A DNA stretch of 41,528 nt from Escherichia phage HK633: sequence record NC_019719.1. One strand, written 5' to 3'. Within the stretch, counting starts at the first letter, position 1. Each line of letters begins with the position of its first letter. The position numbers and the translations under genes are program-made. The notes under the pieces are model-generated. The model was given only the letters and a program-made list of their open reading frames with translations. It had not been told where the DNA came from and did no database searches. Below, piece by piece: positions 2,060-28,588 of the stretch.

Positions 2060-3333
2060 TGGAAGAACCTAAATACACGATTGACCTGCGAACCAATAAC
2101 GGCTGGTGGGCAAGGCTGCAGTCCTGGTTTGTCGGCGGGCGTTTAGTCACCCCAAATCAGGGCTCACAGACGGGGCCTGTTTCGGCCCACGGACACCTGG
2201 GCGATTCATCCATTAACGATGAACGGATACTGCAAATTTCGACTGTGTGGCGCTGCGTGAGCCTGATTTCAACGCTCACGGCATGCTTACCGCTTGATGT
2301 CTTCGAAACAGACCAGAATGACAACCGTAAAAAAGTGGATTTGAGCAATCCACTGGCGCGACTGCTGCGCTACTCACCGAATCAGTACATGACCGCCCAA
2401 GAATTCAGGGAGGCCATGACGATGCAGCTCTGTTTCTACGGTAACGCATATGCACTTGTGGACCGCAACAGCGCAGGTGACGTGATCAGCCTTCTCCCGC
2501 TTCAGTCTGCCAATATGGATGTGAAGCTCGTCGGAAAAAAAGTGGTTTATCGCTATCAACGCGACAGCGAATACGCCGACTTTTCGCAGAAAGAGATTTT
2601 TCATCTTAAAGGCTTCGGATTCACCGGGCTTGTAGGCCTGTCACCCATTGCTTTTGCCTGTAAATCGGCAGGTGTGGCAGTTGCGATGGAGGACCAGCAG
2701 CGAGATTTCTTTGCCAACGGCGCCAAGTCTCCGCAAATCCTCTCAACTGGCGAAAAAGTGCTAACTGAACAGCAGCGCTCCCAGGTCGAAGAGAACTTCA
2801 AAGAGATCGCCGGCGGCCCGGTAAAAAAACGCCTCTGGATTCTGGAAGCGGGTTTTTCTACATCGGCAATTGGCGTAACTCCGCAGGATGCCGAAATGAT
2901 GGCGTCCCGAAAATTTCAGGTAAGTGAACTGGCGCGATTCTTTGGCGTACCGCCTCACCTTGTCGGCGACGTCGAGAAATCAACGAGCTGGGGATCGGGC
3001 ATCGAGCAGCAGAATCTCGGCTTCCTGCAGTACACCCTGCAGCCCTATATCTCCAGGTGGGAAAACAGCATTCAGCGGTGGCTTATTCCTGCTAAGGATG
3101 TTGGCCGCATTCATGCTGAGCACAACCTCGACGGCCTGCTGAGGGGCGATTCGGCATCCCGCGCTGCCTTTATGAAGGCAATGGGAGAGGCAGGGCTACG
3201 CACCATCAACGAGATGCGACGAACGGACAACCTCCCGCCATTGCCGGGTGGCGATGTGGCAATGCGCCAGTCGCAATACGTGCCGATCACCGATTTAGGA
3301 ACCAACAAAGAGCCCCGTAATAACGGGGCTTAA
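2059..3333 (+). CDS. Portal protein (HK97 family)
   Basis: 424 aa from ATG 2059 (ORF track begins at GTG 2056); start overlaps TerL stop (TGATG); conserved position between TerL and prohead protease. Confidence 0.88.
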   Translation: MEEPKYTIDLRTNNGWWARLQSWFVGGRLVTPNQGSQTGPVSAHGHLGDSSINDERILQISTVWRCVSLISTLTACLPLDVFETDQNDNRKKVDLSNPLARLLRYSPNQYMTAQEFREAMTMQLCFYGNAYALVDRNSAGDVISLLPLQSANMDVKLVGKKVVYRYQRDSEYADFSQKEIFHLKGFGFTGLVGLSPIAFACKSAGVAVAMEDQQRDFFANGAKSPQILSTGEKVLTEQQRSQVEENFKEIAGGPVKKRLWILEAGFSTSAIGVTPQDAEMMASRKFQVSELARFFGVPPHLVGDVEKSTSWGSGIEQQNLGFLQYTLQPYISRWENSIQRWLIPAKDVGRIHAEHNLDGLLRGDSASRAAFMKAMGEAGLRTINEMRRTDNLPPLPGGDVAMRQSQYVPITDLGTNKEPRNNGA

Positions 3334-3350
3334 TTTTTATGGGGGCCGTA

Positions 3351-4028
3351 ATGCCTGAAATCGTAAAAACGCTGTCCTTCGACGAGACAGAAATCAAATT
3401 CACCGGTGACGGTAAACAGGGGATTTTTGAAGGCTACGCCTCTGTTTTTAATAACACCGATTCCGATGGCGACATCATTCTGCCCGGGGCGTTTAAAAAC
3501 GCGCTGGCGAACCAGACCCGAAAAGTGGCGATGTTTTTTAACCACAGGACGTGGGAACTGCCGGTTGGCAAATGGGACAGCCTGGCTGAGGACGAAAAAG
3601 GCCTGTATGTGCGCGGTCAACTTACCCCAGGACACAGCGGCGCCGCTGACCTGAAAGCGGCAATGCAGCACGGTACGGTTGAAGGTATGTCGGTTGGCTT
3701 TTCCGTTTCGAAAGACGATTACACCATCATTCCAACAGGCCGCATTTTTAAGAATATCCAGGCTCTGCGCGAAATCAGCGTCTGCACTTTCCCCGCCAAC
3801 GAACAGGCTGGCATCGCAGCCATGAAAAGTGTCGATGGTATTGAAACGATTCGTGATGTGGAGAACTGGCTGAGGGATTCAGTCGGCCTCACCAAATCAC
3901 AGGCAGTTGGGCTAATTGCCCGGTTTAAGTCAGCGATTCGGAGCGAGTCCGAGGGCGACGGAAACGAAGCACAAATAAACGCTCTGCTTCAGAGCATCAA
4001 ATCTTTCCCTTCTAACTTAGGTAAATAA
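3351..4028 (+). CDS. Prohead maturation protease (HK97 gp4-like)
   Basis: ATG 3351 preceded by GGGGG 5 nt upstream gives 225 aa, the size I recall for HK97 gp4; ORF track starts 12 nt earlier at 3339. Confidence 0.85.
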   Translation: MPEIVKTLSFDETEIKFTGDGKQGIFEGYASVFNNTDSDGDIILPGAFKNALANQTRKVAMFFNHRTWELPVGKWDSLAEDEKGLYVRGQLTPGHSGAADLKAAMQHGTVEGMSVGFSVSKDDYTIIPTGRIFKNIQALREISVCTFPANEQAGIAAMKSVDGIETIRDVENWLRDSVGLTKSQAVGLIARFKSAIRSESEGDGNEAQINALLQSIKSFPSNLGK

Positions 4029-24966: not shown

Positions 24967-25260
24967 TCAGTCATTACTGATAGCGCCATAGCGTGATCGA
25001 TAATTACGCAGGCGCGGGTCAATTTCAGGGAAGTGGGTATATGTGGCTTTGCGGAATGGTCGGATTGATGTCTGGTAAATTCGCTCGCGTTCTTCTTTCT
25101 CTGCAAGCCATATACAATGGCGAAATTCCTTTTCCTCTTTCGTTTCCTGCGGTAGCGACATTATCCGATCGTAGTTTTTTCTGAATTTATCCAGCACCTC
25201 CGATACGGAATTGCCGGAACAGCGGCGCGGGTCATCCGCACCATACAGAGGCGCTGGCAT
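24967..25260 (-). CDS. Hypothetical protein
   Basis: 97 aa from ATG 25260 with AAGGA RBS; track start at 25281 is TTG. Confidence 0.45.
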
Positions 25261-25283: not shown

Positions 25284-25667
25284 CTAGAAGGGAATTGAAT
25301 CGTCGTATTCAGGATGATTTTGATGATTGCTACTTTGCTGCTGTTGGCTGTTTCCTGAAGTTGCAAATCCAATCTTTGCATTCAGTAATTCAAGATTGAT
25401 TGATTGACCATTTTGCCCCTGATAAACATCAACCCTGATGTTTTCTCCGGTAATTTCAACAATGCCACCTTCAACAAGAACACTACGGTAGTAATCCGCT
25501 TGCGCTCCCGGCTTGGCAAATACAACGGCGCTGTAGTTTGTCCATTCTTTCTTTTTTGTCTGGCGATCGTAATACTGAACGCCAGCACGGATGTTGAATC
25601 CGATATTTTCCCCGGCCTGAAACTCTCTTGCGGGTTTGTTTAGTCTTACTGTAATCGAATGTGCCAT
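25284..25667 (-). CDS. Single-stranded DNA-binding protein-like (OB fold, acidic DSIPF tail)
   Basis: 127 aa; C-terminus ...EYDDSIPF resembles the SSB partner-binding tip; TAATG coupling to erf. Confidence 0.6.
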   Translation of the reverse strand: MAHSITVRLNKPAREFQAGENIGFNIRAGVQYYDRQTKKKEWTNYSAVVFAKPGAQADYYRSVLVEGGIVEITGENIRVDVYQGQNGQSINLELLNAKIGFATSGNSQQQQSSNHQNHPEYDDSIPF

Positions 25668-26272
25668 TAAGCAGCCGCTCCTTCTAATTCGTCTCGTCTG
25701 ATGTTGTAAACGTCCTGCGCTTTATGCTGCTCCGGTGTGCCTTCGAGCATCTTCCACGCTTTGGCGAACGCCTGTTTAAGCTCTTCTACGGTGTTTTTCT
25801 GCATTGCTGCGTCAGTGAATGCTTTTAGAACCTGTTCAGGTGTAGGTGATGGTTTTGATTGCTTTGCTGCTGCGTTCTGCTGATGTTTATGCTCGTCGGT
25901 ATCTGCATCTTTAGCATCATCAATGCCGAACAAACCATTGAGGCAATACTTGCGTGCATAAGAGCTTGTAGCTCCCGTAACTTGTGCAGAATCCATTCCT
26001 TTCTTGCTTTCTTCCTCTCGTGCTAGCGCGGTTGCCGTATGACTGTTTTCGCCATCAGTAATAGTTGCCGTGGCTTTCACGTAATACCGATCACCAATCA
26101 ACACAACTTCATCGCTGATTGATAAAAACAGACCATTCAGTAACGGCTTAACGCCTTCAAGAATGTCTTCGCAGCTTCTGTATTTATATTTGCCGAATGA
26201 GTTGTACTGATTCTTTGGCGCGTTCAGATTCTCCTGAATAGCTGCCAGTCTTGCGTAAAATTCTTTGCTCAT
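25667..26272 (-). CDS. erf: ERF-family single-strand annealing protein
   Basis: 201 aa from ATG 26272 (track start 26302 is TTG); conserved central region and Lys/Ala-rich C-terminus as in P22 Erf. Confidence 0.7.
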   Translation of the reverse strand: MSKEFYARLAAIQENLNAPKNQYNSFGKYKYRSCEDILEGVKPLLNGLFLSISDEVVLIGDRYYVKATATITDGENSHTATALAREEESKKGMDSAQVTGATSSYARKYCLNGLFGIDDAKDADTDEHKHQQNAAAKQSKPSPTPEQVLKAFTDAAMQKNTVEELKQAFAKAWKMLEGTPEQHKAQDVYNIRRDELEGAAA

Positions 26273-26361
26273 ATGATTGTTCTCAGAATGGACACGGCCC
26301 AAGGAAATAACGCTGATTTAATACTTCAGTCTTTGCCGCATTTAAAAATACGCGAACACCT

Positions 26362-26532
26362 TCACGATCTCCCTTCTGGCGATACATTAACGCCTGCTGC
26401 GTGTACATGCGTCTCTGTAACTTGCTCTCCTTCACTGTGGTTGCAAGTGACATGAATATCTCCTTCGTTACCGATTAAATCTTTCATCTGACGAATGAAT
26501 TCTTCGTCTGACCAGTTATCTGTAAAACTCAT
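26362..26532 (-). CDS. Small acidic protein (position of P22 arf)
   Basis: 56 aa from ATG 26532, overlapping kil-like stop (ATGA); track start is GTG at 26547. Confidence 0.4.
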   Translation of the reverse strand: MSFTDNWSDEEFIRQMKDLIGNEGDIHVTCNHSEGEQVTETHVHAAGVNVSPEGRS

Positions 26533-26681
26533 TTCCTGCGATACCACGGAAGGTTGATAGCTGATTTCATAGCTTTATTTGCTTCAAGCCACATTTTTGA
26601 ATCACCAATAAATCTGGCTATTACTGCTTTGTTCTGTGCTGCACGAAGCATCTGGTGATTGATGGCTATTTCATTGCGCAT
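26529..26681 (-). CDS. kil: Kil-like small protein
   Basis: 50 aa, hand-translated; GAGG RBS 7 nt upstream; motif IARFIGDSKMW resembles lambda Kil; not in ORF track (below 60 aa). Confidence 0.45.
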   Translation of the reverse strand: MRNEIAINHQMLRAAQNKAVIARFIGDSKMWLEANKAMKSAINLPWYRRK

Positions 26682-26797
26682 AATAAGACCTCAACTCTTT
26701 TCCATCCGTCACGTAATTTACGGGTGATTCGTTCAAGTAAAGATTCATTTAGTTGGAAGGCACCCATGCGAGCGCCTCCCGCGATTGCGTAAATCAT
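26666..26797 (-). CDS. cIII: cIII-like FtsH inhibitor
   Basis: 43 aa, hand-translated; AAGGAA RBS 6 nt upstream; core ESLLERITRKLRDGWKR matches lambda cIII as recalled. Confidence 0.65.
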   Translation of the reverse strand: MIYAIAGGARMGAFQLNESLLERITRKLRDGWKRVEVLLCAMK

Positions 26798-26821
26798 GGG
26801 TGGTTCCTTATGTTGGTTTTA

Positions 26822-27724
26822 TTAGTAGGTTATTTTTGTTGCGAATACTTCGCCTTTTACGATGGCTGTTATGATATTTTTAGCAACATCTTCTGATGCG
26901 CCAACCTTGATAAGGTCAGCAAGTATTTTGTTATTTACTTCTTTCCGGTGAGCTTTATCCTTTGCTCTACGCTCTTCTTCGTCCTTGATTCTTTTTTCTT
27001 CTGCTATTCTGGCTTGCTCTTTTGCTTCAGCCTCGCGACGGATTCGTTCAGCCTCCTCCTGTGCTTTTCTGCGTTCTGCTTCAATTGCTGCCTGCTTTTC
27101 TCTTTCAGCTCGTTCTGCTGCGGCCTTAGCTTCTGCTTCTCGCCTTGCTGCTGCTTCAATTTCGGCTTTTGCCTTTGCTTCGGCTTCTGCTCTGGCTTTC
27201 TCTTCAGCTTCTCTTTTTAATCGTTCTTCATGCTCTCGCTTTTCCTGCTCCGCTTTGAGTCTTGCCTCTTCTCTTTGGCGGTCAAATTCGCGATCCATCA
27301 AAATCGCTATTTCATGGTCAGACTCAATTTGCTTTGCGAGAGCTTCAGCTGCTGCCTTAGCTTCTTCTTCGGCTTTAATCCGCGCCTGTTCTTCCTCATA
27401 ATCAGTAAGAGGCTGGCGCGCCTTGGCTTTCAGTTCATCAAGGCGATCGCGCACTGTCTTGCGGTTGGCATCAATTAGCTTTGGAATTTCCTTCAGTTCA
27501 GCAACAAGGTCTTTGCCAAGACCATCGAGATATGTTTTCGTCTGCGCAACTTTATACGCCAGAGAAGCGATCTCCTTTCTGCCCTTTGCCGTTGTGATAT
27601 CAGGCACAAAGGACATAACTTCACGTTCAACCTTTTGAAGGATTTCTTCAATCTGGTCGGCAGACTGAAATACAGTCATTGCATTTGATTTTTCAATAAC
27701 AACTAAATCTGTTACTTCACTCAT
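26822..27724 (-). CDS. Hypothetical protein with N-terminal globular domain and E/A/K/R-rich low-complexity helical region
   Basis: 300 aa from ATG 27724 (GGAGGA RBS); roughly 150 aa of EAKR repeats (TolA-like composition); first gene after the leftward terminator. Confidence 0.6.
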   Translation of the reverse strand: MSEVTDLVVIEKSNAMTVFQSADQIEEILQKVEREVMSFVPDITTAKGRKEIASLAYKVAQTKTYLDGLGKDLVAELKEIPKLIDANRKTVRDRLDELKAKARQPLTDYEEEQARIKAEEEAKAAAEALAKQIESDHEIAILMDREFDRQREEARLKAEQEKREHEERLKREAEEKARAEAEAKAKAEIEAAARREAEAKAAAERAEREKQAAIEAERRKAQEEAERIRREAEAKEQARIAEEKRIKDEEERRAKDKAHRKEVNNKILADLIKVGASEDVAKNIITAIVKGEVFATKITY

Positions 27725-27736
27725 ATATCCTCCATC

Positions 27737-27763
27737 AAAAAAATTGCCCTCACACTGGAGGGC
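27737..27763 (-). terminator. Intrinsic terminator on minus strand (GCCCTC-CAGTGT-GAGGGC + AA + T7), tL-like
   Basis: Perfect 6-bp stem; U7 tail on the minus strand; between the PL-proximal genes and the recombination cassette. Confidence 0.65.
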
Positions 27764-27912
27764 AAAGAAGATTTCCAATAATCAGAACAAGTCGGCTCCT
27801 GTTTAGTTACGAGCGACATTGCTCCGTGTATTCACTCGTTGGAATGAATACAAAGTGCAGTGTTTATTCTGTTGTTTGTGCCAAAAATAAAGGCCGACTA
27901 TGCGTCCTGAAA

Positions 27913-28278
27913 TTACTTAACCAATGATGCTGCATATTCGATAAGGTAAAGTTTTGGAGCAAGCCAAATTTTCAGCCAGTCGAAATAATTGAAGAAAACA
28001 ACAATAGAAGTAATCGCTATTCCTGATGTGACAAGTAGTGATAAAAGAACAATATCTGCATCATCTCCTTTATTCCATGCAAAAATCATCAGATAAACAC
28101 ACGCTATAATCACCAATACACAGATAGCCTGAATTCCAGCTGATGATACGGCGTGCCACATCAAAAGCTGATGGATGACATCAGGAATCTGTGCCTGGCT
28201 AAATGAAACAGCCGCGTCTATTCCATTGCTGGCTTTTTGCAGTAGTTCTACGAGAATCTTGTTTGCTTGTTCTTCCAT
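27913..28278 (-). CDS. Small integral membrane protein (sieB-position; function unknown)
   Basis: 121 aa; AAGGTGA RBS; two to three hydrophobic helices; flanked by 13-bp direct repeats. Confidence 0.6.
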   Translation of the reverse strand: MEEQANKILVELLQKASNGIDAAVSFSQAQIPDVIHQLLMWHAVSSAGIQAICVLVIIACVYLMIFAWNKGDDADIVLLSLLVTSGIAITSIVVFFNYFDWLKIWLAPKLYLIEYAASLVK

Positions 28279-28588
28279 ATATCACCTTGATTGTAATAAG
28301 CATGAAATTATTTACGGCTAAAAAATAAAGGCCACCATCAGCAGCCTTGTTGTAAATGTTGCAGGTATCAAGTAAGTAATTAGATGGAGCGCCATAAATT
28401 ATGAATTCATCGTTTGTCGGATCCATCTCCATCTCTTGGCCTATTGCCATTCTTGCGTCAGTGTCATCAGCGGCGAAGCATAAAACAGCCCACGCTCCCA
28501 TTGTTTTAAAAAGAACTGCAATTGGCTGTGGTTTTACTGAATTTGCGTTAGCGCGAAAATCACAAATCGCACTTTCATGAAATTCCAT
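28199..28588 (-). CDS. Hypothetical protein
   Basis: 129 aa from ATG 28588 (GAGGT RBS), 8 nt after N stop; C-terminal 80 nt overlaps the membrane-protein gene in another frame. Confidence 0.45.
   Translation of the reverse strand: MEFHESAICDFRANANSVKPQPIAVLFKTMGAWAVLCFAADDTDARMAIGQEMEMDPTNDEFIIYGAPSNYLLDTCNIYNKAADGGLYFLAVNNFMLITIKVIYGRTSKQDSRRTTAKSQQWNRRGCFI

Follow-up and report, generated by a model that had tools for sequence, protein, structure and literature searches.

Positions 26362–26797 of Escherichia phage HK633 (NC_019719.1; the window is the whole stretch of 41,528 nucleotides) very probably belong to a common and already annotated mosaic cassette, an N-dependent pL operon with a lambda-class cIII gene, a lambda-family kil gene and two small overlapping reading frames, ORF3 and ORF4. 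The segment would form the middle of the early-left operon of an HK97/HK022-like lambdoid phage, with the order N, coiled-coil gene, cIII, kil, ORF3, ORF4, erf, ssb-like gene and abc2. The homologies, the identities to RefSeq proteins, the frames under selection and the synteny are observed directly. The minus strand was read from 25400 to 27600, taking every ORF of at least 20 aa, and the features are listed in Table 1. The initial annotation had described three small minus-strand ORFs of 43, 50 and 56 aa, and these are found just where it placed them, with the CIII core ESLLERITRKLRDGWKR and the Kil-like motif FIGDSKMW present verbatim as quoted; it had also said that the 56-aa ORF begins at a non-ATG codon in the mechanical ORF track, which indeed lists it as a 61-aa ORF with a GTG start. 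That reading missed the frame of ORF4: the single third ORF is in fact two overlapping ORFs, and it is ORF4 on which selection acts in the overlap.

Table 1. Features of the early-left region of HK633, in window coordinates and in operon order.
Feature	Coordinates	Strand	Evidence or remark
N antiterminator, lambda-type, 108 aa	28597..28923	(-)	Pfam N36 E 1.5e-26; first early-left operon gene
Candidate tL-type terminator: GC-rich hairpin and T run	27744..27765	(-)	consensus scan; just upstream of coiled-coil gene
Ala/Glu/Lys-rich coiled-coil protein, 300 aa	26822..27724	(-)	phrog_1376 E 3e-108; equivalent to Sf6 gene 33
cIII, 43 aa, lambda class	26666..26797	(-)	Pfam PF02061 E 4e-15
kil, 50 aa, lambda/HK97 family	26529..26681	(-)	Pfam PF06301 E 1.7e-20
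ORF3, 56 aa, Arf-like conserved N-terminus	26362..26532	(-)	phrog_2123 E 6e-40
ORF4, 56 aa, HkaM / HK97 gp42 family	26283..26453	(-)	phrog_1723 E 4.5e-34
erf, 201 aa, single-strand annealing recombinase, P22/HK97 type	25667..26272	(-)	Pfam ERF E 2e-44
SSB-like protein, 127 aa, HK97 gp40 homolog	25284..25667	(-)	phrog_44 SSB E 9e-28; C-terminus ...DDSIPF
abc2, 97 aa, P22-type anti-RecBCD protein	24967..25260	(-)	91/97 residues equal P22 Abc2

The genes flanking the segment are those expected of such an operon. N is lambda-type, as had been proposed, with 98 of 107–108 residues identical to lambda N in a global alignment, and the candidate terminator ahead of the coiled-coil gene is one that N-modified polymerase would read through. 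The 300-aa coiled-coil protein gave no matches in a Pfam search, and PGAP labels the gene either 'TolA' or 'coiled-coil domain-containing'. Downstream, the erf and SSB-like genes that had been reported are both present (Table 1). Erf is identical to HK97 Erf at 201/201 residues and is 75% identical to P22 Erf, and the SSB-like protein shares 119 identical residues with HK97 gp40 but reaches only E 0.013 against the NCBIfam ssb model; BLASTP found no similarity between this protein and P22 Abc1, and comparison of the gene with lambda Ea10 gave no meaningful match.

As lambdoid genes cIII and kil are textbook examples, and the assignment of the first two small ORFs to them is confirmed by both Pfam and PHROG. 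The cIII start codon has the sequence TAAGGA 7 nt ahead of the ATG, and its 43-aa product, MIYAIAGGARMGAFQLNESLLERITRKLRDGWKRVEVLLCAMK, scores 56 bits against Pfam Lambda_CIII (cutoff 25.7), matches phrog_550 at E 1.6e-20, and is identical, residue for residue, to RefSeq WP_000638547.1. Alignment to the lambda and P22 proteins, which had been suggested as a check, is positive in both cases, with 69% identity to lambda CIII and 72% identity to P22 C3, and the core ESLLERITRKLRDGWKR is identical in lambda CIII. In lambda CIII, activity requires residues 14–37 and needs nothing beyond them, and two classes of CIII protein are distinguished, the lambda class and the HK022 class (Kobiler et al., PMC1838920). 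Within this region 18 of 24 residues are identical in HK633, 17 of them contiguous, and the equivalent of R32 is kept. The HK633 protein belongs to the lambda class, as do those of mEp213 and Sf6, whereas HK97 and HK022 carry HK022-class CIII. Within the pL operon the gene follows N and stands immediately upstream of kil, with which it overlaps, as in lambda, P22 and HK97. By homology its product would be a competitive inhibitor of the host FtsH protease, so that CII would be stabilized and lysogeny favored, and the 43-aa protein retains the amphipathic region that lambda CIII requires for activity and that suffices for it. Lambda CIII is 54 aa long with a C-terminal tail, and the HK633 protein is without lambda's C-terminal 17 residues; these fall outside the sufficient 14–37 region, that sufficiency being known for the lambda allele.

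The kil gene follows with a 16-nt overlap, not with the ATGA-type junction that had been described for all of these ORFs and that does hold between kil and ORF3. The sequence GAGG stands 7 nt ahead of the kil ATG, and the 50-aa product, MRNEIAINHQMLRAAQNKAVIARFIGDSKMWLEANKAMKSAINLPWYRRK, scores 72.6 bits against Pfam Lambda_Kil (cutoff 27.6) and matches the PHROG Kil family at E 1.2e-35. Codon position 3 accounts for 20 of the 31 kil polymorphisms. The protein is identical to HK97 Kil and to RefSeq WP_001243355.1 and is 55% identical to lambda Kil across 33 aa. BLASTP, run with word size 2 and an E limit of 10, found no similarity between it and the 62-aa Kil of P22, nor any between lambda Kil and P22 Kil. 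The proposed alignment thus succeeds for lambda and fails for P22, and the comparisons place HK633 Kil in the lambda/HK97 family, not with the P22 type. Lambda Kil exerts a ZipA-dependent block of FtsZ assembly (Haeusser et al., PMC3961180), and by homology the HK633 protein would block FtsZ-ring assembly and cause cells to filament once the operon is derepressed. The filamentation test that had been proposed for this ORF has in effect been done at the level of the region, because the UTI89 region described as "cIII, kil2, two small ORFs, erf" was enriched in a sorted filamentation screen (Mediati et al., PMC6206680), which resolved regions and not single genes, and the kil2 protein of this UPEC strain is identical to HK633 Kil.

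As well-known genes, cIII and kil of HK633 are routinely annotated, and the description of these ORFs as unannotated is true only of the ORF track with its 60-aa cutoff. RefSeq/PGAP names WP_000638547.1 "protease FtsH-inhibitory lysogeny factor CIII" and WP_001243355.1 "host cell division inhibitory peptide Kil", and the CIII and Kil proteins so named by PGAP in UTI89 and MS6192 are identical to those of HK633. A search of NCBIfam found no models for cIII, kil, ORF3 or ORF4, and PGAP evidently names cIII and kil by a route other than NCBIfam models. In the mEp213 record CIII, Kil, both small ORFs, Erf, the gp40 homolog and Abc2 are all annotated, with notes that equate the two small ORFs and cIII with Sf6 genes 29, 30 and 32; five genes, 29 to 33, lie under the match in the Sf6 record, and the HK97 annotation (AF069529) lists cIII, kil, gp42.1/gp42, erf, gp40 and abc2. 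The 581-bp interval used for DNA comparison is 99.0% identical to mEp213, mEp043 and HF4s and 94–98.5% identical to mEp234, HK544, Sf101, CUS-3, Sf6 and others, and 2181 of 5426 complete E. coli genomes contain a match to it, with coverage of at least 80% in 461. In a comparison over 25 kb, the window shows 95–96% identity with HK542, HK75, HK022, HK106 and mEpX2 along about half its length.

Among the closest relatives of the cassette, the HK97 region has the same genes in the same order, although the HK97 record fuses ORF3 and ORF4 into gp42.1 where HK633 keeps two ORFs, and the same cassette is found in mEp213, mEp043, HK544, Sf6 (genes 29–33), Sf101 and CUS-3. Lambda (NC_001416) has cIII followed by an overlapping kil in an N-dependent pL operon, as in HK633, but continues with gam-bet-exo where HK633 continues with ORF3-ORF4-erf-ssb-abc2.

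The space between kil and erf also departs from the initial annotation. The third ORF had been said to lead into erf, but 89 nt separate the end of ORF3 from the erf ATG (26272), and ORF4 occupies that space. ORF4, with the product MSLATTVKESKLQRRMYTQQALMYRQKGDREGVRVFLNAAKTEVLNQRYFLGPCPF, has a strong ribosome-binding site of its own (AAGGAG-N7-ATG) and, in the +1 frame, has 92 nt in common with ORF3. Among 53 haplotypes from the closest 160 IMG/VR loci (at least 97.5% identical, and so a source of counts only and not of deep divergence), all 11 variants within the 92-nt overlap are at third positions of ORF4 codons and synonymous there; in ORF3 the same 11 are at first positions, where ten are nonsynonymous, one of these ten being a nonsense change. 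Synonymous variation in ORF4 has about the same density inside and outside the overlap, and the ORF3 frame therefore imposes no extra constraint. Comparison of six lineages (Sf6-type, Klebsiella, Enterobacter, Pseudocitrobacter, Erwinia and Yersinia) gives pN/pS values in the overlap of 0.19–0.52 in the ORF4 frame versus 1.3–7.8 in the ORF3 frame, and ORF4 as a whole has 20 synonymous and 3 nonsynonymous polymorphisms and a pN/pS of 0.25–0.51. ORF4 is thus well supported as a gene whose frame is under purifying selection in the overlap.

A profile search with ORF4 recovers 96 cluster representatives of about 56–62 aa, and those with species names come from Escherichia, Salmonella, Enterobacter, Erwinia, Pantoea, Serratia, Kosakonia, Citrobacter and Yersinia. 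Residues S10, A21, R25, N46, F50, P55 and F56 are invariant. When the alignment of the 56-aa type is set against one built independently for the 62-aa type, which includes HkaM of phage HK620 (NP_112046), hhalign returns a probability of 98.2% and E 5.4e-14 over 55 columns; at the profile level, ORF4 is homologous to HkaM. The two have the same site before a recombinase gene and the same C-terminal Pro-Phe, and differ in that HkaM has 62 aa and precedes Sak4 whereas ORF4 has 56 aa and precedes Erf. The loci examined were the window, HK620 and ten others, and in each of them the ORF4 homolog is immediately upstream of a strand-annealing recombinase gene, coding for Erf, a Rad52-like protein of 235 aa or a Sak4/RecA-like ATPase, and this pairing occurs in Escherichia, Klebsiella, Salmonella, Enterobacter, Erwinia, Pseudocitrobacter and Yersinia. 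A scan of genome contigs with the ORF4 profile yielded 8 loci with a single degenerate pattern, a sample of lineage diversity and not a census. An AF2 model of ORF4 (pLDDT 91.6) predicts a two-helix hairpin with a free C-terminal tail, for which Foldseek searches of PDB and BFVD returned generic helical hairpins only (E > 0.1).

ORF3 is probably also a small gene, with its functional part in the N-terminal 22 residues or so and the rest a by-product, the 30-residue tail being an unconstrained read-through across ORF4. Its start lies at the kil stop, in the ATGA junction, through which its translation is probably coupled to that stop. This position between kil and erf matches that of Arf in P22, and the ORF3 N-terminus and P22 Arf have the motif SDEEFI in common. 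Direct comparisons with P22 Arf give a weak match to its family phrog_2445 (E 0.013), a short BLASTP match (47% over 17 aa, E 0.005) and an hhalign probability of 41% over 19 columns, and one public source names a near-identical ORF3 protein 'accessory recombination function protein'. These likenesses are of position and motif, short of established homology, and weakly suggest a relationship to Arf; the molecular function of P22 Arf is itself unknown (PMC12315714).

Other readings of the two ORFs can be weighed against this one. That ORF3 is not a gene, with its 5' part kept for the 3' end of kil, the ORF4 ribosome-binding site or an mRNA structure, and with ORF4 alone coding, would fit the PGAP calls (only ORF4 in MS6192, neither ORF in UTI89), the poor spacing of a Shine-Dalgarno sequence, AGGAA, that directly abuts the ATG, and the searches of Pfam and NCBIfam, which gave no family for ORF3. 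We consider it unlikely, as 12 of the 16 polymorphisms in the first 26 codons are at third positions of ORF3's own codons, and the N-terminal peptide motif MS[FI][TA]DxW[ST][DE][DE]xF[IV]RxM recurs across genera joined to unrelated tails of 9 to 38 residues. The N-terminal pN/pS values against Enterobacter, Pseudocitrobacter and Salmonella relatives point the same way, being 0.24–0.57 in the ORF3 frame and 0.59–1.66 in the two others, although in the SPN9CC comparison the frames barely differ (0.57 versus 0.59). A further reading takes ORF3 and ORF4 as one gene, in which a +1 shift, programmed or ancestral, gives a protein of 82–83 aa. HK97 gp42.1 is annotated as just such a protein (83 aa, beginning where ORF3 begins and ending at the stop of ORF4), nine database proteins of 70–82 aa match both ORFs, and in the 160 IMG/VR loci ORF3 and ORF4 always move together as one module, with similarity breakpoints where one gene gives way to the next, at the starts of kil and ORF3 and shortly past the ORF4 stop. 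The HK97 fusion, however, arises through two one-base insertions 8 nt apart relative to the window, and the join points of the fusion proteins vary (after residues 26, 29, about 35, 43, 45, 46, 48 and 50), most of them being represented by single sequences. A single-base deletion anywhere in the overlap is enough to create an 82-aa ORF from this 250-nt unit, and with so many different join sites sporadic indels or sequencing or assembly errors fit, and a programmed frameshift does not. ORF4 moreover has its own start and is present in HK620, Yersinia and Erwinia where ORF3 is missing, and a single gene is highly improbable; a programmed frameshift from ORF3 into ORF4 was rejected as unlikely on the same grounds, namely the scattered joins and an ORF4 that has its own start and occurs alone.

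The cassette could also be of the P22 type, c3-kil-arf-erf with exactly three small genes, in which the full 56-aa ORF3 is the equivalent of Arf and stands directly before erf. The order cIII-kil-small ORF-erf does mirror that of P22 (NC_002371), c3-kil-arf-erf-abc1-abc2, as the initial annotation had said, and Erf and Abc2 (94% identical) are of P22 type; several phage records carry ORF3 at its full length or close to it, the family is PHROG 2123, and the ORF3 frame is open for 26–31 codons into ORF4 in the five lineages that have ORF3. Against this, ORF3 stops short of erf and ORF4 fills the gap, the ORF3 tail is without purifying selection and is interrupted by the nonsense change in one haplotype, and versions of the ORF3 family only 31–35 aa long occur. 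The open tail is also no longer than in synonymous-codon shuffles of ORF4 (P 0.12–0.48 per lineage, Fisher combination about 0.2). The idea of a functional ORF3/ORF4 overlap, with the tail kept open by selection, was dropped, as the openness does not go beyond chance. Kil is unrelated in sequence to that of P22, HK633 is without Abc1, having the SSB-like gp40 homolog in its place, and P22 is without an HkaM-like ORF4; of the six P22 genes c3, kil, arf, erf, abc1 and abc2, homologs were found for C3, Erf and Abc2 and not for Kil and Abc1, with ORF3 a weak match to Arf. A P22-type cassette is thus very unlikely, and the term P22-style, apt for Erf and Abc2, does not extend to the lambda-type Kil or the replaced Abc1. 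Since Kil is of lambda/HK97 type, Abc1 is absent, an SSB-like gene follows erf and the backbone is HK97/HK022-like, we prefer to describe the region as a mosaic cassette of the HK97/mEp213/Sf6 type, with ORF3 and ORF4 as separate overlapping genes. Related phages have different parts of this interval: P22 has Arf only, HK620 has HkaM only, and the two types occur together and overlap in HK633, in Sf6-type alleles such as that of UTI89 and in SPN9CC.

The position of ORF4 beside recombinase genes raises the question of a part in recombination. HkaM was described as an orphan of unknown function in HK620 (Hutinet et al., PMC5928155), and in oligonucleotide recombineering Sak4 and SSB alone reach the level of the whole HK620 module, to which HkaM adds nothing (PMC5928155); as HkaM is dispensable in that assay, a recombination role for ORF4 would derive from gene position alone. 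The C-termini of the 62-aa HkaM subfamily have the form S/D-E-L/I-P-F, and the invariant C-terminal Pro-Phe of the family resembles, in sequence, the C-terminal tip of SSB, DDDIPF. It is conceivable, if doubtful, that the HkaM family including ORF4 is a general accessory factor of strand-annealing recombinases acting as a mimic of the SSB tail, with the Arf-like ORF3 peptide a second such factor; if so, the mimicry would engage the recombinase or compete for host SSB-binding proteins. As with CIII and Kil, any such biochemical activities would be those suggested by analogy with work on lambda, P22 and HK620.

Annotation of the cassette in phage genomes goes back to the sequencing of HK97, and its recognition in HK633 has little discovery value. 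It does illustrate that functional phage genes are lost from view when an ORF track stops at 60 aa, and that public records disagree on the kil-erf interval, with both, one or neither of the overlapping ORFs called. ORF4 is a homolog of HkaM under selection, where the published HK620 study had HkaM as an orphan, and the residual interest of the region lies in an interval of about 250 nt that encodes HkaM-like and Arf-like peptides beside phage recombinases.

The interval between kil and erf in HK633 contains two small ORFs. The initial annotation placed one small ORF there (ORF3, 56 aa) and overlooked the next, ORF4, the fourth small ORF of the cassette, which has its own ribosome-binding site and overlaps ORF3 by 92 nt in the window. 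Purifying selection acts on the ORF4 frame in this overlap, and HkaM of phage HK620, termed an orphan by the HK620 authors (PMC5928155), is a homologue of ORF4. The C-terminal Pro-Phe is invariant in ORF4, recalling the tip of SSB.

The kil–erf interval is annotated inconsistently in RefSeq, as in the MS6192 and UTI89 loci listed in the table, and phage records variously call one of the ORFs, both, or a fusion of the two. Fusion of ORF3 and ORF4 into a single ORF of 70–83 aa is seen in HK97 and sporadically among database proteins (P0015, P0023, P0024, P0031, P0032, P0038, P0044, P0048, and P0051). The fusion junction varies among cases, and the fusions appear to stem not from a programmed frameshift but from sporadic single-base insertions or deletions, or from errors in sequencing.

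Coordinates of early-left features in HK633 and of the kil–erf interval in related loci
Feature	Sequence	Coordinates	Strand	Remarks
ORF4, 56 aa	HK633	26283-26453	minus	AAGGAG ribosome-binding site
Coiled-coil protein, 300 aa	HK633	26822-27724	minus	Ala/Glu/Lys-rich; between N region and cIII
Terminator-like hairpin and T run	HK633	27744-27765	minus	Upstream of coiled-coil gene
121-aa ORF	HK633	27913-28278	minus	Hydrophobic stretches; between N and coiled-coil gene
Terminator-like hairpin and T run	HK633	28328-28348	minus	Upstream of 121-aa gene
Fused ORF3/ORF4	HK97 (L180)	1501-1752
kil–erf interval	MS6192 (L002)	3299-3548		ORF4 called, ORF3 not
kil–erf interval	UTI89 (L178)	2166-2425		ORF3 and ORF4 both uncalled, sequence intact

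Two further genes lie between N and cIII. The 121-aa ORF matches phrog_3054 (unknown function), and Pfam and NCBIfam searches with it gave no match. The coiled-coil protein likewise has no Pfam match, and is named either 'TolA' or 'coiled-coil domain-containing' by PGAP; its relatives differ in length, which suggests repeat expansion, with a mechanical ORF of 318 codons in the window versus 340 in L172 and an annotated 322 aa in mEp213. L172 (JAFADF010000066.1), a contig of 3.9 kb that carries the label 'MAG: Actinomycetes bacterium', bears this E. coli lambdoid cassette, with cIII and kil proteins identical to those of the window, and is probably contamination or misbinning in that metagenome-assembled genome. 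Both hairpins, each within the early-left operon, are candidate N-suppressed tL terminators, and a comparable GCCCTC...GAGGGC hairpin is located upstream of cIII in HK022.

The cassette is mosaic, and comparison of window positions 26240-26830 with 160 related IMG/VR loci (L006-L165) shows that gene boundaries are the exact start and end points of similarity to related phages. Breakpoints fall at the kil start, at the ORF3 start, and shortly past the ORF4 stop, with one within cIII where its conserved core begins; within ORF4, a divergent central stretch distinguishes the window allele from that of Sf6/UTI89.
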